A stretch of DNA of 64,000 bases from contig NC_086097.1 in the NCBI RefSeq assembly GCF_963921235.1, positions 4,092,001 to 4,156,000 of the forward strand, given 5' to 3'. Below are positions 2,601 through 26,730 of this stretch, in pieces (within the stretch, counting starts at the first letter, position 1; each line of letters starts with the position of its first letter). This stretch comes from Mobula hypostoma (taxonomy: Eukaryota). Under the pieces are notes generated by a model. That model worked only from the letters and a program-made list of their open reading frames with translations. It was not told the origin of the DNA and did no database searches. The translations under genes were made by a program, and so were the position numbers.

Positions 2601-5600
2601 CCATAAGACATAGGAGCAGAATTAGGCCATCTGGCCCATAGAGCCTGCTCCGCCATTCAATCACAGCCTACCATTTTTTTTTACCTCCTCCTCAACCTCA
2701 GTTCCCGGCCTTTTCCCTGTAACCTTTGATACCATGTCCAATCAAGAACCTATCAAGCTCTGCCTTAAGTATACCCAATGGCCTGGCCTGCACAGCTGCA
2801 CATGGCAACAAATTCCACAAATTCACCACCCTTTGGCAAAAGAAATTTCTCTGCATCTCTGTTTTGAAAGGGCACCCCTCTATCCTGAGGCTGAGACCTC
2901 TTGTCCTTGACTCGCCCACCATGGGAAACATCCTTCCCACATCTACTCTGTCTAGGCCTTTCAAAATTTGAAAAGTTTCAATGAGATCACCCCTCATCCT
3001 TCTGAATTTAGGCAAGTACAGACCCAGAGCCATCAAATGTTCCTTGTATGATCATCCTTTCATTCCTGGAATCATCCTTGTGAAGCTTCTCTGGACCCAC
3101 TCCAATGTCAGTACACTTTTTCGAAGATGAGGGGCCCAAAACTGTTCACAATACTCAAGTTGAGGCCTCACCAGTGCCTTATAAAGCCTCAGCATTACAT
3201 CCTTGCTCTTGTATTCTAGATCTCCTGAAATGAATGCTAACATTGTATTTGCCTTCCACACCACTGACTCAATCTGCAAATCAACCTTTAGGGTGTTCTG
3301 CACAAAGACTCCCAAGTCCCTTTGCATCTCAGATTATTGGATTTTCTCCCTGTTTAGAAAATAGTCTGCACATTTACTTCTACTACTACAGTGCATGACC
3401 ATGCATTTTCCAACATTGTATTTCAATTGCCACTTTCTTGCTCATTCTTCTAATCTGTCTAAGTCCTTCTGCATCTTACCTGTTTCCTCAGTACTACTTG
3501 CCCCTCCACCAATCTTTGTATCATCTGCAAACTTAGCAACAAGGCCATCTATTCCACCATCTATTCCATCATCTAAATCATTTATATACTGCATAAAAAG
3601 AAGTAGTTCCAATACTGACCCCTGCGGAACTCCACTAGTCACTGGCAGCCAACCAGAAAAGAATCCTTTTATTCCCACTTGCTGCTTCCTACAAATCAGA
3701 CAATGCTCTAACCGTGTTAGTAACTTTCCTGTAATACCGTGGGCTCTTAACTTGGTAAGCAGCCTCATGTGTGGCATCTTGTCAAAGGCCTTCTGAAAGT
3801 CCAAATACACAACATCCACTGCATCCCCTTTATCTATCCTACTTGTAATCCCCTCAAAGAATTCTAACAGGTTTGTTAGGCAAGATTTTCCCTTAAGGAA
3901 ACCATGCTGACTTTGTCCCATCTTGTCCTATGATACCAAATATTCCATAACCTCATCCTTAACAACTGAGTCCAACACCTTCCCAACAACTGAGGTCAGG
4001 CTAACTGGTCTATAATTTCCTTTCTGCTGCCTTCCTCCTTTCTTAAAGAGTGGAGTGACATTTGCAATTTTCCAGTCCTCTGGCACCATGCCAGAGTCCA
4101 ATAATTTTTGAAAGATCATTTCTAATGCCACCACAATCTCTACCGCCATCTCTTTCAGAACCCTAGGGTGCTTAAGGTAAAAGAACCATTAGAAACCAGT
4201 TCATCCGGTTCAGGTGACCTATGTACCTTTAGGTCTTTTTAGCTTTCTGAGCACCTTCTCCCTTGTAACAGTAACTGCACTCACTTCTCTTCTTTCACAC
4301 ACTACAACATCAGGCATACTTCTAGCATCTTCCACAGTGAAGATTGATGCAAAATGCCAGAGTCCAATGATTTTTGAAAGATCATTACTAATAATTCCAC
4401 AATCTCTACCGCTACCTCTTTCAGAACCCTAAGGTGCAGTTCATCTGGTCCAGATCACTTATGAGTAACTGCACTCACTTCTCTTTCCTCATACCCTTCA
4501 ACACCTGGCGCACTGCTGGTATCTTCCACAGTGAAGACTGATACAAAATACTCATTTAGTTCATCAGCCATCTCCTTGACGCCCGTTATTATTTCTCCTG
4601 CCTCATTTTCTAGCGGTCCTTTATTTACTCTCATTTCTCTTTTATTTTTAACATACTTGAAAAAACTTTTATTATCCACTTTGATATTATTTTCTAGCTT
4701 GTTTTCATATTTCATTGTTTCCTTTCTGATGATTTTTTGCTCTCTGTAGGTTTTTGAAAACTTCCCAATCCTCTATCTTCCCACTAATTTTTGCTTTGCT
4801 GTACACCCTTTCTTTTGCTTGTACAATAGCTTTGACTTCCCTTGTCACCATGGTTGTACTGTTTTACCATTTGAGTATTTCTTCATTTTTGGAATATACA
4901 TGTCCTGCACCTTCCTTATTTTTCCCAGAAAAGCACGTCGTTGCTGCTCTGCGGATATTCCTGCCAGCAGCTCCTTCCAATCTACTTTGGCCAACTCCTT
5001 TCTCATACCAATGTAATTTCCCTTACTCCACTGAAATACTGCTACATCAGACTTTACTTTGCCCCTATCAAATTTCAAGTTGAACTCAATCTCATTGTGA
5101 TCACTGGTTTCTAATGGTTCTTTTACCTTAAGCTCCCTAATCGCCCCCTGTTCATTACATGACACCCATTCCAGTATAGCTGATCCCCTAGTAGGCTCAA
5201 CAACAAACTGCTCTAAAAAGCTATCTCTTAGGCATTCAACAAACTCACTCTCTTGGGATCCATTACCAACCTGATTTTCCCGTTCAACCTGCATGTTAAA
5301 ATCTCCCTTGACTACCATAATGTTGCCCTTTTGACACGCCTTTTCTATTTCCTGTTGTAATCCGTGGTCCACCTCCCAGACACTGTTGGGAGGCCTGTAT
5401 ATAACTGCCATCAATGTCCTTTTACCCTTGCAGTTTCTTAACTCAAACCACAAGGATTCAACATCTTCTGATCCTATGTCACATCTTTCTACTGATTTGT
5501 TGCCATTTATTACCAGTATAGCTACACCACACCCTCTGCCTACCTTCCTATCCCTCCAATTTAACGTGTAACCTTGGACGTTCAGCTCCCAATTACAACC

Positions 5601-14475: not shown

Positions 14476-17400
14476 ATCCAGTTGCTGTGGTCCATGTGGG
14501 TCCCAACAATATAGGTAAAATGAGGAAAGAGATTCTGCTGAGGAAGTTTGAGCAGTTAGGGACTACATTAAAAAGGAGAACCAAAAAGGTGGTAATCTCT
14601 GGATTACTACTTTAGCCATGTGCAAATTGGTATTGGGTCAGGAAGCTTAGAGAGTTAAATGCGTGACTCAAGGATTGGTGTGGGAGAAGTGGGTTTGACT
14701 TCATGGGAAAATTAGCACCAGTATTGGGGAAGGGGGGAGCAGTACCAATGGGACGGGCTCCACCTGAACTGTGATGGGATCTGGATCCTACAAAATCACA
14801 TAATTAGGGCTGTGGACAAGGCTTTAAACTAAATAGTCGGGGGGTGATTTCAACAGATTGGAGAAATAAAGTAAAAAAGAAAAGTGTGGATAAAGATAAA
14901 GAAAAAGCAAAAGGTAAAAAAAGAGAAAAGTAAGAGTGGGGTGAAGAAAAGTTAAGTGCAAAAGAGTAAAAGCTTACAAGATTTTAAAAGCACAATGAGT
15001 GTAAATGCACTTTATTTGAATGCCTGTAGTATTCAAAACAAACTCAGTGAACTTGTGGGCACATATCAGTACAATGGGGTATGATTTAGTGGCCATTACA
15101 GAGATGTGGTTGCAGGGTGGGGAAGACTGGGAAGTAAATATCCAAGGATATCAGGTAATATGGAAGGATAGGCAGGACGGTAATGGAGGTTGGGTGGTGT
15201 TCTTAATTAAAGATGAAATCAGGGTGATGATGAGAGATGATATAGGATCTAAGGAGCAGAATATTGAATCCATCTGGGTAGAGATTAGGAATAGTAAAGG
15301 GAAAAAATCACTGTGGGAGTTGTTTGTAACATTACAGTGCCACAGGAAATAAACAAAGAAATATCTGAGGCACGTAAGAATGGAACAGCAGTTATCATGG
15401 GGGACTTTAACTTGCTCATAGCTTGAGAAAATCAAGTTGGTCGAGGTAGTCTTGAGGACTTCATAGAATACATCTGTCATCGCTCTCTCGGACATCATGT
15501 TACTGAACCTACAAGGGAATGTGCTACTTTAGATCTGGTCCTGTGCAACGAGACAGGTAAAATTAGTGATCTTGTAGTTAGGGATCCTCTTGGAAAGAGT
15601 GATCACAGTATGACTGAGTTTCTCATACAAATGAAAGGTGCAACAGTTTGATCTTAAACCAGTGAATTATGCCTAAACAATGGAGACTACAATGGGATGA
15701 GGGAGGATTTGGCTAGTGTAGACTGGGAACACAGACTATATGGTGGAATAGTTGTGGAACAGTGGAAGACTTTCAAAGAGATTTTTCACGGTGCTCAACA
15801 AAAGTTAAAAGCAGTTAAATGCTAGGACAGTGAGGGTGGGGAGAGCCAGCCTTGGATAACTAAGGAAATAAAAGAAGGCATCAAATTAAAAGTTGGTGTG
15901 TTGAAAGTCACCAAGAATAATGGGAAACTGGAAGATTGGGAAAACTTTAAAAAGCGACAAAGAGCCACTAAGCAAGCAATAAAGAAAGGGAAGCTAGATT
16001 ACAAAAATAAACCAGCACAAAATATAGAAACAGATAGTAAAAGTTTTTATAATTATATAAAGCGTAAAAGGGTGGCGAAAGTGAACATAGGTCCTTTGGA
16101 GGATGAGAAGGGATTGATATTAGGTAATGAGGAAATGGCAGAGACTTTGAATGACTTTTTTGTGTTGGTCTTCATGGTGGCAAACGTGTCTAACATGCCA
16201 AAGAGAGATGTTATGGTTGTGATGGGAGATGAGGGCCTCAAGACAATAGCTATCACTAAAGAGTAGTGCTGAGCAAACTTCTGGGCCTGAAGATAGACAA
16301 GTACCCTCATCATGATGGAATGCATCCCAGTGTACTGAATGAAATGGCAGCACTTACAGTAGAGGCTTTGGTGATAATTTACCAAAATCCTCTGGACTCT
16401 GGGCAGGTCCTAGCAGATTGGAAGACAGCGAATGTTATGCCACTGTTCAAAAAAGTAAGCTGGCAGAAGGCAGGCAACTATAAGTTAGTTAGTTTAACAT
16501 CTGTAGTTGGGAAAATGCTTGAAGCTAATTTAAAAAAGAAATAGTGAGGCATCTGGAAAGAAATGGATCCATCAGGTAGACACCTCATAGATTCAGCAAA
16601 GGCAGCTCCTGTTTGACAAACTTACTGGAGTTCTTTGAGGATATAAGAAACACAGTGGATAGAGGGGAACAGATGGACGTTATTTACTTGGATTTCTAGA
16701 AGGTGTTCGATAAGGCGCCACATAAAAAACTTATTCATAAGATAACGATGCATAGAGTTGGGGGGTGATGTATGAGCATGGATAGAGGATTGGTTAACTA
16801 ATAGAAAGCAGAGTTGGGATACATGGGTGTTTCTCTGGTTGGCAGACGGTGGTGAGCGGGGTGCTGCAGGGGTCGGTGCTGGGCCTGCAACTGTTCACGA
16901 TACATGTTAACGATCTGGAAGAGGGGACTGAGTGTAGTGTATCTAAATTTGCCGATGATACTAAATTGAGTGGAAAAGGAAATTGTGCAGAAGATATGGA
17001 GAGCTGGCATAGTGATAAAGATAGGTTCAGTGAGCGGGCAAGGGTCTGACAGATGGAGTACAATGTTGGTGAATGCGAGGTCACCCACTTTGGAAGGAAA
17101 AATGAAAGAGCAGATTACTTAAATGGTAAAATATTGCAGTATGCTGCTGGGCAGAGGGACTTGGGAGTGGTTGTGCATGAATCACACAAGGTTAGTTTGC
17201 AGGTGCAGCAGGCTATCAAGAAGGCAAATGGAATATTGTCCTTCATTGTGAGAGGGATTAAATTTAAGAGCAGGGCTGTTATGCTGCATCTGTAAATGGT
17301 ACTGGTGAGGCTGCACCTGGAGTACTGTGGGCAGTTCCGGTCTCCTTACTTGAGGAAAGATATACTGGTTTTGGAAGCAGTGCGGAGGAGGTTCCCCACA

Positions 17401-17878
17401 TTGGTTCCAAAGATGAGGGGGTTAGACTATGAAGAATGATTGAGTCTCTTGGGACTGTACTTGCTGGAATTCAGAAGAATGAGAGGAGATCTTATAGAAA
17501 CATATAAAATTACAAAAGGGACAGATAAGGTAGAGATAGGAAAGTTGTTTCTACTGGTAGGTGAGACTAGAACTAGAGGACATAGCCTCAAGATTTGGTG
17601 GTGTAGATTTAGGACAGGGATGAGGAGGAACTCCTTTTCCCAGAGAGTGTTGAATCTGTGGAATTCTCTGCCCAATGAAGCAGTGGAGGCTACCTCAGTA
17701 AATATATTTTAAGATAAGGTTAGATATATTTTTACATAGTAGGGGAATTAAGGGTTATGGGGAAATGGCAGGTACGTGGAGGTGGGTCCATGGCCAGATC
17801 AGCCCTGATCTTATTGAATGGTGGAGTAGGCTCTATGGGCCAGATGGCCTACTCCTGCTCCTATTTCTTATGTTCTTA
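14476..17878 (+). mobile_element. CR1 LINE from ORF1 C-terminus to 3' tail, degenerate
   Basis: VHVGPNNIG and DGLHLN esterase motifs, APE (AITEMWL), RT (KFADDTK), CTTATGTTCTTA tail. Confidence 0.9.
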
Positions 17879-17954
17879 AATACAATGTTGGAAAATGCAT
17901 GGTCATGCATTTGGTAGTAGAAATAAATGTGTGGTCTATTTTATAAATGAAGCG

Positions 17955-18152
17955 TGTACCGTATAGCCTACAGTATAATAAGGGACTACTTTATGTTTTA
18001 GTAACACGTCATTGAATGTGCTATTAGGCGCGTATTGATCTATAGGTGTGTGCCGAGTTCAGTTTCTGCCTGTAAAGAACCATGAACCTTAGTTCCCGTC
18101 TCCAGCATTTTTATTAATAGCATTATTGTGTAACCAGGCCACATACACAACA
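17955..18152 (+). repeat. 5' LTR (198 bp)
   Basis: TGTACCGTATAG...CATACACAACA. About 9 substitutions relative to 22188-22410 by manual alignment; lacks one 25-bp internal repeat unit. Confidence 0.95.
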
Positions 18153-18154
18153 AA

Positions 18155-18166
18155 TTGACGATGAGG
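18155..18166 (+). promoter_or_regulatory. Primer-binding site (degenerate)
   Basis: TTGACGATGAGG, 2 nt after the 5' LTR; two transitions from the TGGCGACGAGG PBS typical of Mag-like Gypsy elements. Confidence 0.7.
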
Positions 18167-18534
18167 GTAATGAACCTACATCGTATTGGAACGCCGTGTT
18201 TTAATTCATAATGACACTCGGAAGAAGAGCGCAAGGAACGAGCCAAGGAGTGGGAGAAGGAGGCAGAGCGAGGCCGCGAGTCTGAAAGGAAGCTGGAACA
18301 CAGCCAGGGTTGGGAACATCGGGAAACCAAGAGACACAGTCGGAGCCACAGCACATCCAGCTGAGACCACAGTCGGCGCTGACCCCCAGGGGCTGAAGGT
18401 CTGTCTGCCCCAGAAGGGAGATAAAAAGGAGTGACACACACATCTAGATGGAGTGTGCTCGTGGCGCTAGCAAAAAGGACATGTGAGTCAAAAAGAAAAC
18501 AAGGGGAGAACGGGGCTTAATTAACATAACAAAG

Positions 18535-18940
18535 ATGGCGATGATCGGAACCATTACAGCATTTGATAGTGGCATTGAAGACTGGGCAACTTACGTTGAC
18601 AGAGTGGAGTTATAGTGTGAGGCTAGCAGTGTTAATGATGGAAAGAAAGCCAGTGTCTCACTCAGTATTATGGGAGCAAAAACATAAACTGGCTGCTATG
18701 GAGCTTGTTAACCCCTGAAAAGCCAGTTGACAAAACATTCAAACAAATAGTAGACACTCTCCAACAGAGTTTAAACCCCAAACCACTGGTCATTGCTGAA
18801 AGATTTAAATTTCACAATTGGAATCAGAGCAAAAATGAAAACATTTCTGAATGTTGTGCTGAATTGTGCAAATTATCAGAATATTGTCAATTTGAAGCTG
18901 GTCTATCGGACGCATTGAGGGACAGGTTAGTGTGTGGCAT
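18535..18940 (+). pseudogene. Gypsy gag N-terminal part, disrupted
   Basis: MAMIGTITAFDSGIEDWATYVDRVEL* then ...PKPLVIAERFKFH...LRDRLVCGI, typical Mag-like gag motifs. Has an internal stop and frameshift. Confidence 0.85.
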
Positions 18941-19002
18941 TGTAACGGGGTCCTGAATTACCCCTATGAACTGTGCTTTTGAAAAGAGAGACATGTTGTT
19001 TT

Positions 19003-19039
<37 letters not shown>

Positions 19040-19100
19040 AAGACTAACTTTTGGACTGTCACTTTAAGGCACAAGAATAACTTTTGGATTTCTGCTGAGT

Positions 19101-19137
<37 letters not shown>

Positions 19138-19220
19138 AGAGGGAGCAAGAGAGAGAGAAGGAGAGGGAGCACCGAGCAGCTTGTAATTTGCTATGGTGAT
19201 CGAGGGCGGCGTTATTTGAT
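18941..19220 (+). mobile_element. Truncated LTR-like insertion from a second element, with (GA)n tracts
   Basis: Starts TGTAACGGGG exactly where gag similarity stops; contains (GA)n at ~19005-19036 and ~19082-19147; no matching CA end seen. Confidence 0.5.
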
Positions 19221-19649
19221 GCCCCACCTCCCCCTCGTACCCCATCCGTTATTTATTTATAAACACACATTCTTTTTCTCTCTCTCATTTTTCTCCTTGT
19301 CCCTCTCACTATACCCCTTGCCCATCCTCGGGGTTCCCCCCGCCTTTTCTTTCTCCCTAGGCCTCCTTTCCCATGATCCTCTCATATCCCTTTTGCCAAT
19401 CACCTGTCCAGCTCTTGGCTCCATCCCTCCCTCTCCTGTCTTCTCCCATCATTTCGGATCTCCCCCTCCCCCTCCCACTTTCAAATCTCTTACTAACTCT
19501 TCCGTCAGTTAGTCCTGACGAAGGGTCTTGGCTGAAACGTCGACTGCACCTCTTCCTATAGATGCTGCCTGGCCTGCTGCGTTCACCAGCAACTTTGATG
19601 TGTGTTGCTTGAAATTCCAGCATCTGCAGATTTCCTCGTATTTGCGTTT
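19221..19649 (+). mobile_element. Penelope-like element terminal repeat / 3' UTR with hammerhead motif
   Basis: Reverse-complement match to 28371-28800, beginning at the base after that element's stop codon. Confidence 0.9.
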
Positions 19650-19875
19650 TCTCACATACCTCTGAAACGAACTAAACTACTGCTAAAGGCTTACACAGGA
19701 CAGAAAGTGCATCCCAAAGGTAAAATTAAAGTGACAGTGACCTACGGAGACGAAACACAGCAGCTTAACCTCTATGTACTGAAAAACAGAGGACCACCGT
19801 TGCTGGGACGGGAATGGCTCAGGAAAATCCAGTTGGATTGGCACACCATCAAGGCACTAGATGTGTTAACAAAGG
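19650..19875 (+). pseudogene. Gypsy aspartyl protease C-terminal half
   Basis: [23 protein letters not shown]...[16 protein letters not shown], with the LLGRxWL retropepsin motif. The catalytic DTG half is missing upstream. Confidence 0.85.
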
Positions 19876-19895
19876 AGGGCAGCTTGGCAGGGAAG

Positions 19896-20553
19896 ATGTC
19901 CACAGCTCTTCTCTCACCCATTGTCGACTATTACAACGACGAGGAGGAGCTAGACATCATCGACAATGAGGATGAACGCAGTATCCGTGGCCGTGACTCA
20001 GATGAAGGTATAGAGGATGCAGGTGAGACAGATATTGCCAATAAGCAGGATGATGAAGACTACCTGGAAATAAAAGAGCAGATGTACCAGGAGAAATTGA
20101 CATCTCTCAAAATACAGCTACAGCAGTTACAGGAAGGCACTTTGCAGGAGTATCAGAAAAAGATGAAGAAACTAGATCAACAATACTGTATAAGAAAAGA
20201 ATATGAAATGCAGAGCTTTTTCTGCAACTGAAGACAGAACAAGTGGAAAGGAATTATATTAAACAGAAGAAAGCAGCAGTGAAGGAATTTGAAGATAAAA
20301 AGATTGAGTTAGAAGAAAAGAAAAAGATGATTGAGAATGAGAGGCTAATAATGGAAATCACAGGAGATTCTATGGAGGTAAAGTCAATAACAACTAGGAA
20401 ACTAAGGAGGAGACCTAATGACCCTGTTCCAATTACAGACAAAAGACAAAAACCTGCACCTGCGCAGTTAAATTACTTGTTCACAGATGAACAGATAATG
20501 GAAGACCTGCGAACTGTCAATAAGCTTAAATCTTCGAAAAGACCAACATCTTC
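19896..20553 (+). pseudogene. SUDS3: Processed SUDS3 (Sin3A-HDAC subunit SDS3) retrocopy, 5' part
   Basis: MSTALLSP...KEQMYQEKL...[24 protein letters not shown]...[19 protein letters not shown]...[13 protein letters not shown]...[24 protein letters not shown], matching recalled vertebrate SUDS3 with no introns. Has a ~5-bp insertion frameshift and TGA near 20185-20204, and an 8-codon deletion. Confidence 0.95.
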
Positions 20554-21504
20554 ATTCAAACAGAACAGCTTTCGCACAAGGTAAATCTGGAACCAATTGT
20601 TTCCTCCATTGAGAATTATTCACTTCATCCTTTGCAGGAAAGTTTCTTTTGCACGTACATATTTTGAATCCTCAGCCAATGTGTCTTGTTTTTCACAAAG
20701 AAGTTGGGAAACAGCATCAGAACAGAGGCGAATTCTGGCAACAAACTGTAAGGTTTATATTGTTGTATTTTCACACTTGTGCTGAATGTGCACCTGAAGG
20801 AATTCTCCCTCTTGAGCCAGACAGATAGCACTGCAGGTAATCCTTAATATCAGCAAAACTGTACTTTAACAGCAGCTTAAGAACAATGGAACGAACAACA
20901 GGATTTCGATCAACTGCTTCATCGAATGGTGAATGATTACTGATAAAGTACTGATCTTTCTGTGAGTTATTGGTTTGCCCTGACTTTTGAATAACTAGCA
21001 GAGACAGCAGATCACCAACCACTTCTTTGTTGGTGGCAAGTCATCTTTGAAGCAGACCATGGAAACCGAAGCTATGAAAAATGCGTCACACCTCTTGTGA
21101 AATATGACTAATTTTGCTGCAACTTCACTTATTTCTTCTGTTACTGCTGGTACATAATCATCATCTAGAGCAGTACGGCACAGTGGGCAGAGTTGTTGTC
21201 CTGATTCAAGCCACCGCTTTATACATTTTAAACAGTAAAAATGATCACATGGAAGCAGGATGGGATTGTTGAGTTCTCCTAAGCAAATTGTACATTCTTG
21301 CAGATCATACCTGAAGAACAGACATCCTGCACTATTTTTACAGTCCCTGAGGATCTGAACCACAGCCCGAAAGAGCCCTCAGGATCTCACATCAGAGTTA
21401 CTGTTCAAACTCTTTGCAAGTTGACCAGCGTAGAATACAACCTTGTTCTCCAATTTATCATGGATTTCTTTAACTCCCAAAATGATGTGTTCCACAGAAA
21501 GTGA
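20554..21504 (-). pseudogene. RNF213: Intronless RNF213 (mysterin) cDNA fragment spanning the RING domain
   Basis: LSVEHIILG...NSDVRS; CTICLGELNNPILLPCDHFYCLKC...CPLC (C3HC4 RING); VCFKDDLPP; SPFDEAVDRNPVVRSIVLKLLLKYSF; then, in another frame, LQFVARIRLC...[12 protein letters not shown]. All match recalled RNF213. Several stops and frameshifts. Confidence 0.9.
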
Positions 21505-21910
21505 CAGCATCTCCGTTTTCTCCTGAACATCTTCCCAGCACTCCTGTTGAAACACTAGCTCAAAGATATGAAGCACGAATAGAAGATGGAAAGTTATATT
21601 ATGATAAGAGATGGTATCATAAAGGTCAGGCTATCTATTTAAAATCTAAGGAGAATACAAAGATTGACTGTGTAATTAGCTCAGTTGGAACAAATGAGAT
21701 ATGGGTAAGGAAGACAAGTGATAGCACAAAGATGCGTGTATATCTAGGACAGCTGCACAGAGGAGTCTTCATTACACGGAGGCGATCTGCTGCCTAGAAC
21801 TCTTAGCAAGTTGGAGGCGCACATCTTCTTAACTCCCTATGCTCAGAGGTCAACTTTTCATGACTTTTATATGGAAATCTGTATTAAAACAAACAAGTTT
21901 ATTAACAGTC
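21505..21910 (+). pseudogene. SUDS3: Processed SUDS3 retrocopy, 3' part plus partial 3' UTR
   Basis: [13 protein letters not shown]...[18 protein letters not shown]...[20 protein letters not shown]...RRRSAA* (stop ends 21797), then ~110 nt of putative UTR with ATTAAA at 21883 and no poly(A). Confidence 0.93.
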
Positions 21911-21962
21911 ATTACCCAGAGAGGCCGAGAAGATCCCCCCCCCAAGAGACTTGAGTTATAAA
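21911..21962 (+). pseudogene. Extreme C-terminus of Gypsy integrase
   Basis: YPERPRRSPP(K)RLEL*, resembling the RYPxRxRxPPxRL ending of Gypsy pol; slippage in a C-run. Confidence 0.6.
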
Positions 21963-21991
21963 TGGGTCTTAGACCAAATGTAAAAAAAAGA

Positions 21992-22077
21992 CTTGTTATA
22001 ATTTGATATTATTACATAACTTTGTTATAATTTGGTATTATTACGCTACTTTGTTATAATTTGATATTATTAAGCTA
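21992..22077 (+). repeat. Three ~29-bp tandem repeats in the retrotransposon 3' untranslated region
   Basis: Unit CTTTGTTATAATTTG(A/G)TATTATTA...A seen three times. Confidence 0.85.
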
Positions 22078-22174
22078 TTAAGTAAACAAACAGTAGGCGT
22101 TTGTATGTTAAGGGTAAACATATTTGTTTAGCATAGTGCCCCAATAAAAAAAACAGTTGATACACCATTAAAAT

Positions 22175-22187
22175 AAAAGGGGAGGAG
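22175..22187 (+). promoter_or_regulatory. Polypurine tract
   Basis: AAAAGGGGAGGAG directly abutting the 3' LTR. Confidence 0.9.
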
Positions 22188-22410
22188 TGTACCGTATAGC
22201 CTACAGTATAATAAGGGACTACTTTATGTTTTAGTAACACGTCGTTGAATGCGCTATTAGGCGCATATTGAGCATGCGCTATTAGGCGCGTATTGATCTG
22301 TAGGTGTGTGCCGAGTTCAGTTTCTGCCAGTAAAGAACCATGAACCTTAGCTGCCGTCTCCAGCGTTTTTATTATTAGCATTGTTGTGTAACCAGGCCAC
22401 ATACACAACA
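22188..22410 (+). repeat. 3' LTR (223 bp)
   Basis: Direct copy of the 5' LTR with an extra 25-bp unit GCGCTATTAGGCGCATATTGAGCAT. Confidence 0.95.
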
Positions 22411-23576
22411 AAGAGAAAATCCAAAAATCTGAGATGCAAAGGGACTTGGGAGTCCTTGTGCAGAACACCCTAAAAGTTGATTTGCGGGTTGAGTCAATGG
22501 TGAGGAAGGTAAATACAATGTTAGTATTCATTCCAAGAGATCTGGAATACAAGAGCAAGGATGTGATGCTGAGGCTTTATAAGGCACTGGTGAGGCCTCA
22601 CCTTGAGTATTGTGAACAGTTTTGGGCTCCTCATCTGAGAAAAGATATGCTGGCATTGGAAAGGGTTCAGAGGAGGTTCACAAGGATGGTTCCAGGAATG
22701 AAAGGGTTATTATACGAGGAATGTTTGTTAGCTCTAGATCTGTACTCACTGGAATTTAGAAGGATGGGGTGGGGTGGGAGGACCTCACTGAAACCTTTCA
22801 AATGTTGAAAGGCCTAGGCCCTAGATAGTGTAGATGTGGAAAGGATGTTTCCCATGGTAGGGGAGTCCAGGACAAGAGGACACAGCCTCAAGATAGAGGA
22901 GAATCCATTTAGAACAGAGATGTAAAGAAGTTTCTTTTGCCAGAAGGTGGTGAATATGTGGAATTTATTATCAAGGGCACCTGTGGAGGCCAGGTTGTTG
23001 GGTGTATTTACAGAAGAGCTTGATAGGTTCTTCATTGGACACATCATCAAAGGTTACAGGGAGAAGTCCGGGGAGTGAGGCTGTGGAGGGGAGAAAAGAA
23101 TCAGCCAGGTCTGGATGGCTGAGCAGACTCAATGAGCTAATTGGTCTAATTCTGCTGCTCTGTCTTATGCTCTTATCCTTTATTGATCCCAAAGGAAATT
23201 ACAGGGTCACAGTAGCATTGTGCACAGATAAACAAATATTCAAATATTAGAAGAGAAGTAAGAAAGAATAAAAAAACAAATTACCTCAAATAGTCTAACA
23301 GGAGGGTGTCATCACTTCCCCGGCTATAGGTTGACTCATTACAGAGCCTAATGGATGAGGGTAAGAATGACCTTGTATTGCACTCTTTGGAACAGCGCAG
23401 TTGTCTTAGTCTGTTACTAAAAAGTGCTCCTCTGATCAGCCCAGGTGTTATGCAGAGAATGTGAATCATTGTCCGGAATTGACACTTGTGAAATCAAAAA
23501 AACATGATCCTCACAGTGCTGGCAGAGCAGACTTGATGGGCCAAATGGCTTAATTTTGCTCCTAAGTTTTATAGTC

Positions 23577-24769: not shown

Positions 24770-26730
24770 GCGAAACAAGATAAGAGCACATGGTATTACA
24801 GAAAAATACTAGCATGGACAGAAGATTTGCTGATTGGTTGATTGGCAGAAGGCAAAGAATTGGAATAAAGGGGACCTTTTCTGGTTGGCTAGTAGTGTTC
24901 TTTGGGGGTAGGTGTTGCGTCCACTAATTTTCACATTATATTTTAATGATATGGATGATGGAATTGATGGGTTTGTGGCCAGGTTTGCAGATGATACAAA
25001 GACAGGTGAAGAGGCAGGTAAATTTGAGGAAGGGCTTGAACATATCAGAAGAATGAGTTAAAGAGGTAATAGATGGAATTCAGTCTAGGCAAGTGTATGG
25101 TCATGCAGTTTAGTAGAAGGATAAAGACATAGACTATTTTCTAAATGGGGGAGAAAACTGAAAATTCAGAGCTGCAAAGGGACTTGGGAGTCCTGGTGCA
25201 GGATTTCCTAAAGGTTAACTTGTAGGGTGAATCAGTAGGAAGGAAGGCATATGCAATGTTAGCATTTGTTCTGAGAGGACAAGAATATAAAAGCAAGGAT
25301 GCAATGCTGAGGCTTTATAAGGCTTTGGCCAGACTGTATTTTGGATATTTTGAGCAGTTTTAGACCTCGCATCGAAGAAAAATGTGCTGGCATTGGAGAA
25401 AGTGTAGACGATTGTCAAAGATTGCAGAGAAACATTGATAGGATGCAGAAGTGGGCTGAGAAGTGGCAGATGGAGTTCAACCCGGAGAAGTGTGAGTTGG
25501 TACACTTTGGAAGGACAAACTCCAAGGCAGAGTACAAAGTAAATGGCAGGATACTTGGTAGTGTGGAGGAGCAGAGGGATCTGGGGGTACACGTCCACAG
25601 ATCCCTGAAAGTTGCCTCACAGGTGGATAGGGTAGTTAAGAAAGCTTATGGTGTGTTAGCTTTCATAAGTTGAGGGATAGAGTTTAAGAGTTGCGATGTA
25701 ATGACGCAGCTCTATAAAACTCTGGTTAGGCCACACTTGGAGTACTATGTCCAGTTCTGGTCGCCTCACTATAGAAAGGATGTGGAAGCATTGGAAAGGG
25801 TACAGAGAAGATTTACCAGGATGCTGCCTGGTTTCGAGAATATGCATTATGATCAGAGATTAAGGGAGCTAGGGCTTTACTCTTTGGAGAGAAGGAGGGT
25901 GAGAGGAGACATGATAGAGGTGTACAAGATAATAAGAGGAATAGGTAGAGTGGATAGCCAGCGCCTCTTCCCCAGGGCACCACTGCTCAATACAAGAGGA
26001 CATGGCTTTAAGGTGAGGGATGGGAAGTTCAAGGGGGATATTAGTGGACGGTTTTTTACTCAGAGAGCGGTTGGTGCGTGGAATGCACTGCCTGAGTCAG
26101 TGGTGGAGGCAGATACACTAGTGAAGTTTAAGAGACTACTGGACAGGTATATCGTGAAATTTAAGTTGGGGGCTTATATGGGAGGCAGGGTTTAAGGGTC
26201 GGCACAACATTGTGGGCCGAAGGGCCTGTACTGTGTTGTACTATTCCATGTTCTATGTTCTATGTTCTATGATCCAAAGGATATTCACAAGAGTGACCCC
26301 GAGAATTAAAGGATTAATGCGTGAGGAGCTTTTGATGGCTCTGGTTCTGTATTGACTGGAGTTTAGATGAAGTGGGGGGGGGAGACCTTATTGAAACCTA
26401 TCAAATATTGAAAGGCTTAGGTAGAGTGGATTTGGAGAGAATATTTCCTACAGTGGAAGAGTCTAGGAACAGAGAAATAGCCTCAGAATTGATGTGCATC
26501 CCTTTAGAACAGAGATGAGGAGAGATTTCTTTCGCAAGAGAGTGGTTAATTACACGTGATTAACCAGAAATGAATTCATTGCCATCGACAGCTGTAGAGG
26601 CCAAATCATTGGGTGTATTTAAAGTGGGCATTGATAGGTTCTTGGTTAGTCAGGGCATCAAAGGTCATGGGGAGAAGGCAGGAAAATGGGGTTGAGAGAG
26701 ATAATGAATCAGCCTTGATCAAATCGCGGA
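24770..26730 (+). mobile_element. CR1 3' part containing a younger CR1 3' fragment (~25400-26270)
   Basis: Inner ORFs 25341-25673 and 25701-26195 with (TTCTATG)n tail; the outer element resumes at ~26271. Confidence 0.85.

Follow-up and report, generated by a model that had tools for sequence, protein, structure and literature searches.

A non-autonomous Ty3/gypsy LTR element family of a devil ray carries a spliced SUDS3 sequence joined in frame to gag-protease

In acutely transforming retroviruses, pol (and env) is replaced by a spliced host cDNA in frame with gag (gag-onc), with junctions that come from recombination at short homologies; these viruses depend on a helper, are infectious and somatic, are selected for cell transformation and are known as rare isolates. 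Some plant LTR elements, maize Bs1 among them, contain transduced host gene sequence and encode a gag-host chimera, Bs1 itself being low-copy and made of fragments of several genes. MusD/ETn is a pair of an autonomous and a non-autonomous LTR element. MERVL/MaLR is another such pair, mentioned in Tan et al. 2016 (PMC5131818), parts of which describe LTR-mediated retrocopies (spliced host mRNA within discontinuous parts of an LTR element). In these parts, the retrocopies are described as 3'-truncated and lacking poly(A), with microsimilarity over a short stretch at the fusion point, the frame relative to the parent is often kept, and such loci are suggested to be re-copied as non-autonomous elements; non-autonomous LTR elements are also said to often outnumber their partners (Tan et al. 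2016, PMC5131818, citing Maksakova 2006).

Here we describe a family of LTR elements that carries SUDS3. Our literature searches (SUDS3 with retrotransposons or elasmobranch TEs, and LTR gene capture, partly by titles and abstract openings) returned no SUDS3-carrying transposon. The element resembles the LTR-mediated retrocopies, as portrayed in the sections of the study referred to above, in its spliced cargo, microsimilarity, 3' truncation and lack of poly(A). It differs from the retrocopies of those sections in that its family has at least about 200 junction copies, as many as its autonomous parent, and in that its cargo is a complete ORF in frame with Gag-PR, in one polyprotein frame. We note that a near-pristine, full-length ORF in frame together with a copy number at the level of the parent goes beyond most LTR-mediated retrocopies. 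With the gag-onc retroviruses it shares the replacement of pol by a spliced host cDNA in frame with gag, a junction at a short homology and a probable need for helper enzymes in its replication; unlike them, it is an env-less endogenous gypsy element of the germline, with a co-repressor as cargo and no sign of selection. As in MERVL/MaLR and MusD/ETn, LTRs and leader are common to the two partners, the polymerase is lost, mobilisation would be in trans, and the non-autonomous partner is at least as abundant; the partners in those pairs hold non-coding or unrelated filler, whereas the SUDS3 element holds a host gene in frame with gag-protease. Unlike in Bs1, a whole vertebrate ORF has been amplified hundreds of times.

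The element in the window and its cargo

The window is the whole stretch analyzed, 64,000 nt of Mobula hypostoma contig NC_086097.1 (4,092,001 to 4,156,000, forward strand), and positions below refer to it. Positions 17955-22410 are one decayed copy of a non-autonomous LTR element with the order LTR-gag-PR-(SUDS3 mRNA)-PPT-LTR. The initial annotation had called its protease retroviral, a label that has to be dropped: we are dealing with a Ty3/gypsy retrotransposon rather than with a retrovirus. Its parts are as follows.

17950..17954 (+): 5' target-site duplication AAGCG; 4/5 positions match AAGAG at 22411-22415
17955..18152 (+): 5' LTR, TG...CA; direct repeats D2 and D3, 94% identity to the 3' LTR over gap-free aligned parts
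18535..18940 (+): N-terminal part of gag, ATG at 18535, truncated here; homology to other copies stops at 18940
18941..19645 (no strand): unrelated filler, (GA)n microsatellites and a SINE-like repeat; other copies have 553 bp here
19646..19877 (+): C-terminal part of the protease and first residues of the PR-RT linker; P0122 alignment and DNA homology to L061
19878..19884 (+): 7-nt microhomology GGGCAGC, putative crossover between element RNA and SUDS3 mRNA; L061 diverges after it, parental exon 1 matches onward
19885..19896 (+): SUDS3 5'UTR, 12 nt specific to parental gene and element; comparison with L061 and parental exon 1
19897..20551 (+): first part of the SUDS3 CDS, Met1 to ..KRP.S, spliced; frameshift near 20195-20210, parent has introns at the exon borders
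20552..21504 (-): antisense RNF213-like fragment including a RING finger, inside the SUDS3 cargo ("type A"); RING and RNF213 matches
21505..21797 (+): last part of the SUDS3 CDS, to the stop codon; ORF list and cargo/parent comparison
21798..21926 (+): start of the SUDS3 3'UTR, ~110 nt, no poly(A); longer copies have ~228 bp more, ~340 nt in all
21927..22186 (+): 3' terminal region native to the element, with the polypurine tract aaaaggggaggag at its end, directly 5' of the 3' LTR; found in autonomous copies too
22187..22410 (+): 3' LTR with a 25-bp internal duplication; direct-repeat and terminus comparison
22411..22415 (+): 3' target-site duplication AAGAG; pairs with AAGCG at 17950..17954

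The LTR ends are TGTACC...ACAACA. No RT, RNase H or integrase was found between the LTRs of the SUDS3 element in the ORF list and the copy comparison, and we therefore class it as a non-autonomous derivative. Gag, taken from copy L011, is 60-66% identical to K02A2.6-like gypsy polyproteins. The filler at 18941-19645 stands for ~553 bp that encode the gag C-terminus with two CCHC knuckles and the protease N-terminus with the catalytic site (DTGS); other copies encode CYHCGNMSHDPDDC, CRNCGKQGH and MELDTGSA in one frame, and the window copy is without these parts. Pfam zf-CCHC on a family copy reached only E 0.0096 (under the cut-off), and gag-asp_proteas covers residues 294-384 of the homologue P0122. 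As the initial annotation had recognized, the copy in the window is broken: by the filler, by the frameshift near 20195-20210 and by a 953-bp insert that splits SUDS3. LINE fragments are plentiful around the element.

Identity between the SUDS3 part of the element and true SDS3 proteins is 84-93%. With Pfam Sds3 (PF08598), the window ORF alone, which is short, scores 24.4 bits (cut-off 25.4), a cargo-type annotated protein (P0006) 39.1 bits and a true SDS3 (P0009) 63.2 bits. The parental gene was located by a pattern for the eight residues missing from the cargo, all 125 matches of the protein search being retrocopies; around 8.40 and 8.44 Mb of G000:C78, it has exons bordered by ag/gt, whereas the cargo is contiguous. 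Cargo and parental gene differ by three substitutions and one 8-residue deletion (KENLIAEL), which is in frame and falls within the coiled coil solved as 4zqa (P0009 residues 80-163). The mean divergence of individual copies from the parental exons is 3.7%, and just one difference in 229 nt is common to the whole family. Simple copies hold all three solved regions (the coiled coil 4zqa, the Sin3-interaction segment 2n2h and the C-terminal domain 7sxi), and in the window copy the RNF213 insert lies between the 2n2h and 7sxi regions.

The insert (20552-21504, minus strand) matches RING families (E 1e-11) and RNF213 chains (E 7e-32, human residues 4009-4128). Among the 39 other copies that we compared, five have an antisense RNF213 insert inside SUDS3 as in the window (type A) and six have the insert and no SUDS3 C-terminus (type A'). 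Both types include members with perfect target duplications: subfamilies with an interrupted or C-terminally deleted SUDS3 still transposed. A short flanking repeat had prompted us to consider a hAT insertion, for which no terminal inverted repeats were seen. According to the type A' copies, this repeat is ~25 nt of SUDS3, so that the insert would fit a second template switch rather than a hAT element.

The protease/SUDS3 junction

ORF 19599..20231 (+, 210 aa) runs from the protease tail into SUDS3 with no stop in between, in exact agreement with the single frame described in the initial annotation. Over its protease tail, it is 68% identical (E 3e-34) to residues 325-399 of P0122, a 1311-aa Gag-PR-RT-RH-IN gypsy polyprotein which, by Pfam, keeps the order PR-RT-RNase H-integrase. 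Pfam places the protease domain of this protein at 294-384 and the start of its RT match at 509, which puts the join in the PR-RT linker, ~18 residues beyond the end of the protease domain. The autonomous relative L061 has the same LTR and a gag-PR DNA that is 89.5% identical to that of the SUDS3 element, and it runs on into RT, RNase H and integrase exactly where SUDS3 begins, which bears out the earlier placement of SUDS3 at the start of RT. The two elements also have in common the 260-bp stretch that precedes the 3' LTR, and when this 3' region was used as a query, 4 of the 40 scored matches lay downstream of linker sites of the autonomous type, at a distance of 2.72-2.78 kb. SUDS3 takes the place of RT, RNase H and integrase.

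At the join, the autonomous element reads AAAGGAGGGCAGC followed by AAGGCT, the SUDS3 element reads AAAGGAGGGCAGC followed by TCGGCGGGGAAGATG, and parental SUDS3 exon 1 reads GAGGGGGCGGGCAGCTCGGCGGGGAAGATG. GGGCAGC (7 nt) is common to the PR-RT linker of the element and the 5'UTR of parental SUDS3, and microhomology of this kind at a join would be the signature of template switching by reverse transcriptase. The SUDS3 leader had been put at ~20 nt; its extent holds, but only 12 nt (19885-19896) are specific to SUDS3 and the other 7 nt (19878-19884) are common to the element, so the captured SUDS3 begins just 12-19 nt upstream of its ATG. RNA-type contigs from other organisms have their breaks at the junction too: those of the parental type start at L045:2229, and one contig of the autonomous type stops at 2235.

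On the 3' side, parental mRNA contigs part from L045 after position 3308, with the letters there also present in longer copies, and the crossover is placed to within ~20 nt. The borders of the cargo have neither poly(A) nor target duplication, and the 3'UTR is truncated without an A run. The cargo is flanked by discontinuous parts of one element (L061-like to 19884, autonomous-type from 21927).

We consider it highly probable that the family arose when SUDS3 mRNA was captured through a template switch, and that it spread in trans with SUDS3 as a passenger. The donor would have been an autonomous single-ORF Gag-PR-RT-RH-IN element undergoing reverse transcription, with the enzyme changing template at GGGCAGC from the PR-RT linker to the 5'UTR of a spliced SUDS3 mRNA packaged alongside it, copying the whole SUDS3 CDS and ~340 nt of 3'UTR, and returning to the element just upstream of the polypurine tract. 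The product is an LTR-gag-PR-SUDS3-PPT-LTR element of 3.3-3.9 kb, with one frame of ~709 codons and without RT, RNase H and integrase. Because LTRs, leader, gag and protease were kept, enzymes acting in trans could copy and integrate it; those of the autonomous relative may have done so until its copy number drew level with that of the relative.

Copy number, independent insertions and the ancestral frame

The 32-nt junction has 204 matches in the genome at up to 3 mismatches (none for the reversed control), and the matching linker site of the autonomous relative has 202. The possibility of a single copy, raised with the initial annotation, is thereby set aside. The junction query gave 760 first-look candidates, and all 39 other places that were scored are 91-93% identical across the junction. 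A protein search of the genome with SDS3 gave 125 matches (1705 first-look candidates), all intronless and of at least 77 residues; most of them span the whole protein, and in 4 of the 125 no stop interrupts residues 2-326 or a longer span. The 39 other copies and the window form the 40-copy set used below, a biased sample since they are the best candidates of the junction search (760 candidates), chosen as most like the window copy. A 5-bp target duplication was found in 18 of the 19 copies with both termini (14 match at 5/5 positions and 4 at 4/5), and these duplications differ between copies. The junction is not a chance event of a single locus, and the copies integrated separately.

None of the 40 copies has an intact Gag-PR-SUDS3 frame today, and all examined copies of the family are now dead. 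Stops that recur in at least 4 properly aligned copies all sit at CGA/CAA codons of other copies; all recurrent stops thus go back to CpG decay, and the progenitor had one open Gag-PR-SUDS3 frame, as the initial annotation had supposed. One copy holds a single frame across all 709 codons with just 4 stops, and at least 30 of the 40 copies read through the junction region in frame and without a stop (26 by script, 4 more by eye). The frame was kept through at least two amplification waves (S43R is split 29:9). Most likely, the in-frame fusion is what one event yields by chance one time in three, and selection did not hold it. Among 120 longer Gag-PR relatives listed, we found no annotated fused Gag-PR-SDS3 protein, i.e., none with an Sds3 domain.

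Selection, transcripts and the role of SUDS3

Purifying selection on SUDS3 was not detectable among the 19 copies compared: pairwise dN/dS is 0.58, and out-of-frame controls give 0.53 and 0.76. These are 19 of the 40 aligned sequences, after leaving out 6 of type A (with the window), 6 of type A' and 9 that are rearranged or poorly aligned in gag. We also compared non-CpG variants present in at least 4 copies with singletons in 30 of the 40 copies (leaving out L009, L013, L014, L021 and 6 type A' copies). For SUDS3, N:S is 6:1 for the shared variants versus 315:110 for singletons (P 0.68), and for gag-PR it is 21:14 versus 448:139 (P 0.04). These tests are weak because almost all divergence between copies arose after insertion, and a cargo useful in a short burst would look the same in them. 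On balance, the evidence favours SUDS3 as a passenger.

The fusion may instead have been functional: the polyprotein, or an SDS3 set free from it by the element's protease (at a putative PR/RT cleavage site, as the initial annotation had proposed), would have lacked the eight residues, disturbed or redirected Sin3/HDAC silencing and so aided the spread; we regard this as unlikely. An SDS3 with a deletion in its coiled coil, within a Gag-protease polyprotein, would on this account have acted against silencing or steered particles to Sin3-bound chromatin, which we hold to be just as doubtful, and the decoy role proposed in the initial annotation is speculation. If true, a functional fusion would explain how an element without a polymerase drew level with its autonomous parent. 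It is in keeping with an ancestral frame that had no stop between the gag ATG and the end of SUDS3 and was preserved through the amplification waves, with the capture of the whole CDS from so close to its ATG, with the 204 versus 202 motif matches, and with the small number of family-wide changes, one of which is the in-frame deletion in the 4zqa coiled coil. However, the dN/dS of the cargo lies within the out-of-frame controls, the N:S of its shared variants is 6:1 versus 315:110 for singletons, subfamilies with an RNF213-broken SUDS3 went on transposing, an in-frame join results from one event in three, and cargo-free non-autonomous LTR elements often outnumber their partners according to passages of Tan et al. 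2016 (PMC5131818).

Cargo-type contigs, whose RNA origin is a guess and which carry no information on starts, ends, strand or level, occur in all four runs compared; none of the data sets listed is recorded as RNA. For two devil-ray species, public annotation includes "SDS3-like" proteins with lengths of 311-344 aa (P0001, P0003, P0004 and P0006), all of which are without the same 8 residues and have the substitutions of the cargo. The P0004 model begins in the element leader, takes in the protease tail and resembles an annotated transposon copy; a leader joined to the SUDS3 start, as this model suggests, was found in none of the 15 joints shown (29 more exist). Such "SDS3-like" models of ray genomes probably represent copies of the SUDS3 element. 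That some copies were domesticated as host "SDS3-like" paralogues, with the family as a source of new SDS3 genes, strikes us as very improbable: the deletion and substitutions that the annotated proteins share with the cargo, the 4 of 125 matches that are stop-free over residues 2-326 or more and the contigs in 4/4 runs would fit it, but by a rough estimate a few stop-free frames of 311 codons among hundreds of 4%-decayed copies are about what chance would give, and P0004, with its leader and protease tail, looks like a transposon annotation. A LINE-made SUDS3 processed pseudogene that fell into one gypsy copy and was then segmentally duplicated is, although LINE fragments abound near the element, already contradicted by cargo borders without poly(A) tail or target duplication, by the 7-nt microhomology with the element at the 5' border, by a cargo that replaces RT-RH-IN exactly and is not added to it, and by copies that each have their own 5-bp duplication outside the LTRs.

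With capture by template switching and SUDS3 as a passenger as the preferred reading, the family indicates that LTR-mediated gene capture, known in animals mainly from young single-copy loci, can give rise to a whole transposon family, which here numbers at least about 200 copies and carries an entire host ORF in frame with gag-protease. The 5' side of the capture is unusually well resolved, with the parent, the autonomous donor and the product in one genome and a 7-nt crossover. Since the cargo is a chromatin co-repressor, the family also raises the question of whether transposons ever carry anti-silencing genes.

Architecture of the window copy and integration of the family

The window copy of the SUDS3 element is laid out as follows (positions in the window).

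Features of the window copy
17955-18152 and 22187-22410: direct repeats (LTRs), 94% identical without gaps
outside both direct repeats: 5-bp flanks AAGCG/AAGAG
18535: ATG, gag start
18941-19645: unrelated repeats between the gag start and the protease tail
19599..20231, plus strand: PR-SUDS3 open frame (ORF list of the window)
20207..20584: SUDS3 continuation after a frameshift (ORF list)
20552-21504, minus strand: RNF213-like insert, 953 bp, encoding a RING finger
21486..21797: last portion of SUDS3 (ORF list)
260 bp preceding the 3' LTR: 3' terminal sequence of the element
adjoining the second direct repeat on its 5' side: polypurine tract

The repeats, the polypurine tract and the 5-bp flanks together delimit a 4.46-kb LTR element. 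The initial annotation had described a protease fused in frame to SUDS3, and the frame at 19599..20231 indeed reads as written there. The protease tail aligns to residues 325-399 of P0122 (68% identity, E 3e-34), a 1311-aa 'K02A2.6-like' gypsy polyprotein, and the positions of the Pfam domains on P0122 (protease 294-384, RT from 509, RNase H 712-843, integrase 955-1138) place the join in the PR-RT linker. The SUDS3 portion shares 84-93% identity with true SDS3 proteins, and the ORF list contains no RT, RNase H or integrase between the LTRs of this copy.

We note that two (GA)n microsatellites and a SINE-like repeat stand in place of the element's middle at 18941-19645; the part at 19438-19650 is also found near five more copies (L023, L029, L033, L037 and L040), which marks it as a common interspersed repeat in this genome. 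A 25-bp internal LTR duplication (GCGCTATTAGGCGC.TATTGA, window 22257-22281) is carried by some LTRs and missing from others, and the two LTRs of one copy sometimes differ in it. LINE reverse-transcriptase ORF fragments are abundant on both sides of the element (15020-17712, 22392-23080 and 25311-26195), its two flanks being different parts of such LINEs.

Searching the animal's own 3.48-Gb genome with the DNA of window 19650-20600 gave 760 first-look candidates, and all 39 other scored places were 91-93% identical across the junction, with the flanking parts of the element repeated up to identical limits (17954 and 22411). The 32-nt junction (at most 3 mismatches) had 204 genome matches, as compared to 0 for the reversed control and 202 for the linker motif of the autonomous element. 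A protein search with P0009 (true SDS3) gave 1705 first-look candidates and 125 matches, all of them long intronless stretches (at least 77 residues), the majority covering the whole protein.

The 39 places were fetched and, with the window copy, make up our set of 40 copies. In this sample, which is biased because the 39 were chosen as those most similar to the window copy, 26 are simple (20551 is joined straight to 21505 or slightly later, giving a contiguous spliced SUDS3), five are of the window's kind with the RNF213 insert (type A), six contain a longer stretch of RNF213 and lack the SUDS3 C-terminus (type A'), and two have different sequence at the 20551/21505 point. Among 19 elements with both LTR ends found (18 fetched and the window copy), 18 have a 5-bp target duplication, each distinct (14 perfect and 4 with one mismatch, including one type A and one type A' copy). 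The whole LTR-gag-PR-SUDS3-LTR unit thus integrated many times via integrase, and segmental duplication is ruled out as the source of the copies.

The RNF213-like fragment is a second captured gene within the cargo, lying antisense and comprising the RING finger and the downstream region (E 7e-32 against PDB RNF213 chains). In type A' copies the RNF213 reading frame is longer and unbroken (L028, about 2890-3700 in element orientation), and the SUDS3 C-terminus is lost. SUDS3 sequence of about 25 nt seems to be repeated at the borders of the insert, as a template switch would produce. P0009, annotated in one ray species, has extra residues GIDCVFLI (224-231) between ..SPKRP and ASPSSPEH, a few residues from the entry point of the RNF213 fragment in the cargo; a splice site may have been called wrongly in that gene model.

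Ancestral reading frame and selection

Comparing the 40 copies one by one, without a consensus, we found one in which a single frame runs through 709 codons with 4 stops, covering gag, two CCHC knuckles, the DTGS protease, the linker and SUDS3 to its stop. None of the 40 is intact on that frame, the least damaged having two stops. Stops recur in at least 4 copies at 11 codon positions (the remaining stops are each in 1-3 copies); at eight of these, other copies have CGA or CAA, two products of CpG decay, and the other three come from type A' copies, in which SUDS3 is missing at that point and the alignment is wrong. At least 30 of the 40 copies keep the 64 codons around the join in frame and free of stops (26 by script and four more read as in frame from its output). 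This stop pattern and the in-frame junctions show that the progenitor had one open Gag-PR-SUDS3 frame. That part of the earlier interpretation, with SUDS3 replacing RT, is supported; the proposed release of SUDS3 at a cleavage site and its role as an anti-silencing decoy are without support so far, and some evidence goes against them.

As compared to true SDS3, 9 of 307 aligned positions differ in at least half of the copies, six of which are decayed arginine codons. The remaining majority substitutions are S43R, P187T and S271G, plus an 8-residue deletion inside the solved coiled-coil region (4zqa, residues 80-163): true SDS3 proteins read KKIEL-KENLIAEL-EEKKK, and the eight middle residues are absent from fully read cargo-type sequences.

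Pairwise dN/dS among 19 simple copies was 0.58 for SUDS3 (0.64 with CpG columns masked) and 0.47 for gag-PR, and out-of-frame controls on the same columns gave 0.53 and 0.76 for SUDS3 (masked, 0.59 and 0.97) and 0.65 and 0.73 for gag-PR. For non-CpG variants in at least 4 of 30 copies, N:S was 6:1 in SUDS3 and 21:14 in gag-PR, as compared to 315:110 and 448:139 for singletons (P = 0.68 and 0.04, respectively). There is a weak trace of constraint on gag-PR. Constraint on SUDS3 was seen neither in dN/dS (19 simple copies) nor in the shared-vs-singleton N:S (30 copies), tests of low power because nearly all change came after insertion. Independently of these statistics, copies of types A and A', with SUDS3 interrupted or truncated, still inserted, so a whole SUDS3 was not required for spread.

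In the 40-copy alignment, gag-PR has many non-CpG variants at intermediate frequency (e.g. 17:15, 17:16; N:S near 1.5), and SUDS3 has few, at low frequency. This suggests recombination of the cargo onto divergent gag-PR backbones from the autonomous lineage, or an exchange with them.

Age and spread among species

Average divergence of the copies from two exons of the parental SUDS3 gene (229 of 253 exon letters were placed in the 40-copy alignment) is 3.7%, and one of the differences is family-wide. In the CpG-rich exon 1 the copies diverge by 10.2%; five differences are common to the whole family, and all five are synonymous. The two LTRs of a copy have 75-94% identity when gaps are counted. 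The pattern is close to a star, i.e. capture followed by a burst and then decay, and two linked sites, S43R and a synonymous one, split the copies 29:9, which shows at least two waves.

Element words were found in sequencing runs of at least eight organisms, contigs bridging PR and SUDS3 (at least 31 letters on each side) in 2 of 4 runs examined, and the annotation of two devil-ray species includes 'SDS3-like' proteins of cargo type; the family is therefore common to related species. The public annotations of those two species include P0001, P0003, P0004 and P0006, which lack the same eight residues and have substitutions as in the cargo, and P0004 begins in the element's leader and includes the protease tail (ALDVSAKEGSLVGK). 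All four look like gene models built on SUDS3-element copies.

Origin of the cargo

A pattern for the eight residues has a single genome match (G000:C78:8400158-8400190), at a locus with two SUDS3 exons and introns; exon 1 is located 39.5 kb upstream of them. In this parental gene the 24 nt lie mid-exon between GAGTT repeats, so the gap in the cargo is a deletion, and a splice variant is ruled out. We note that the parental intron after the exon ending ..RRKPAP starts not with GT but with ATATCCTTT, the consensus of U12-type AT-AC introns.

L061, the autonomous relative, shares the LTR (88%); its gag-PR DNA is 89.5% identical and leads on into RT, RNase H and integrase.

Sequences at the join (slash, point of divergence)
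autonomous element: ..AAAGGAGGGCAGC / AAGGCTACATCT..
SUDS3 element: ..AAAGGAGGGCAGC / TCGGCGGGGAAGATG..
parental exon 1: ..GAGGGGGCGGGCAGCTCGGCGGGGAAGATG..

The crossover lies inside 7 nt, GGGCAGC, common to both templates (window 19878-19884), and the SUDS3-specific leader is 12 nt only. In other organisms, parental-type contigs start matching at position 2229 of another copy, L045 (2 of 4 runs examined), and an autonomous-type contig stops matching at 2235 and continues with RT-linker letters. Of 40 scored matches to the 260 bp before the 3' LTR, four are found 2.72-2.78 kb downstream from linker sites of autonomous elements, which is the RT-RH-IN length. Judged from these matches, the 260 bp are part of the autonomous element, so the cargo ends after about 110 nt of 3'UTR in the window copy and about 340 nt in longer copies; no poly(A) tail was found at its 3' end in either.

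Tan et al. (2016, PMC5131818) attribute this structure to the reverse transcriptase of LTR retrotransposons switching templates at microsimilarities. Such an enzyme probably switched template at microsimilarity here, joining the element to SUDS3. No description of a SUDS3-carrying element turned up in full-text literature searches. LTR-mediated gene captures are a known class, to which the SUDS3 element adds a new and very abundant member.
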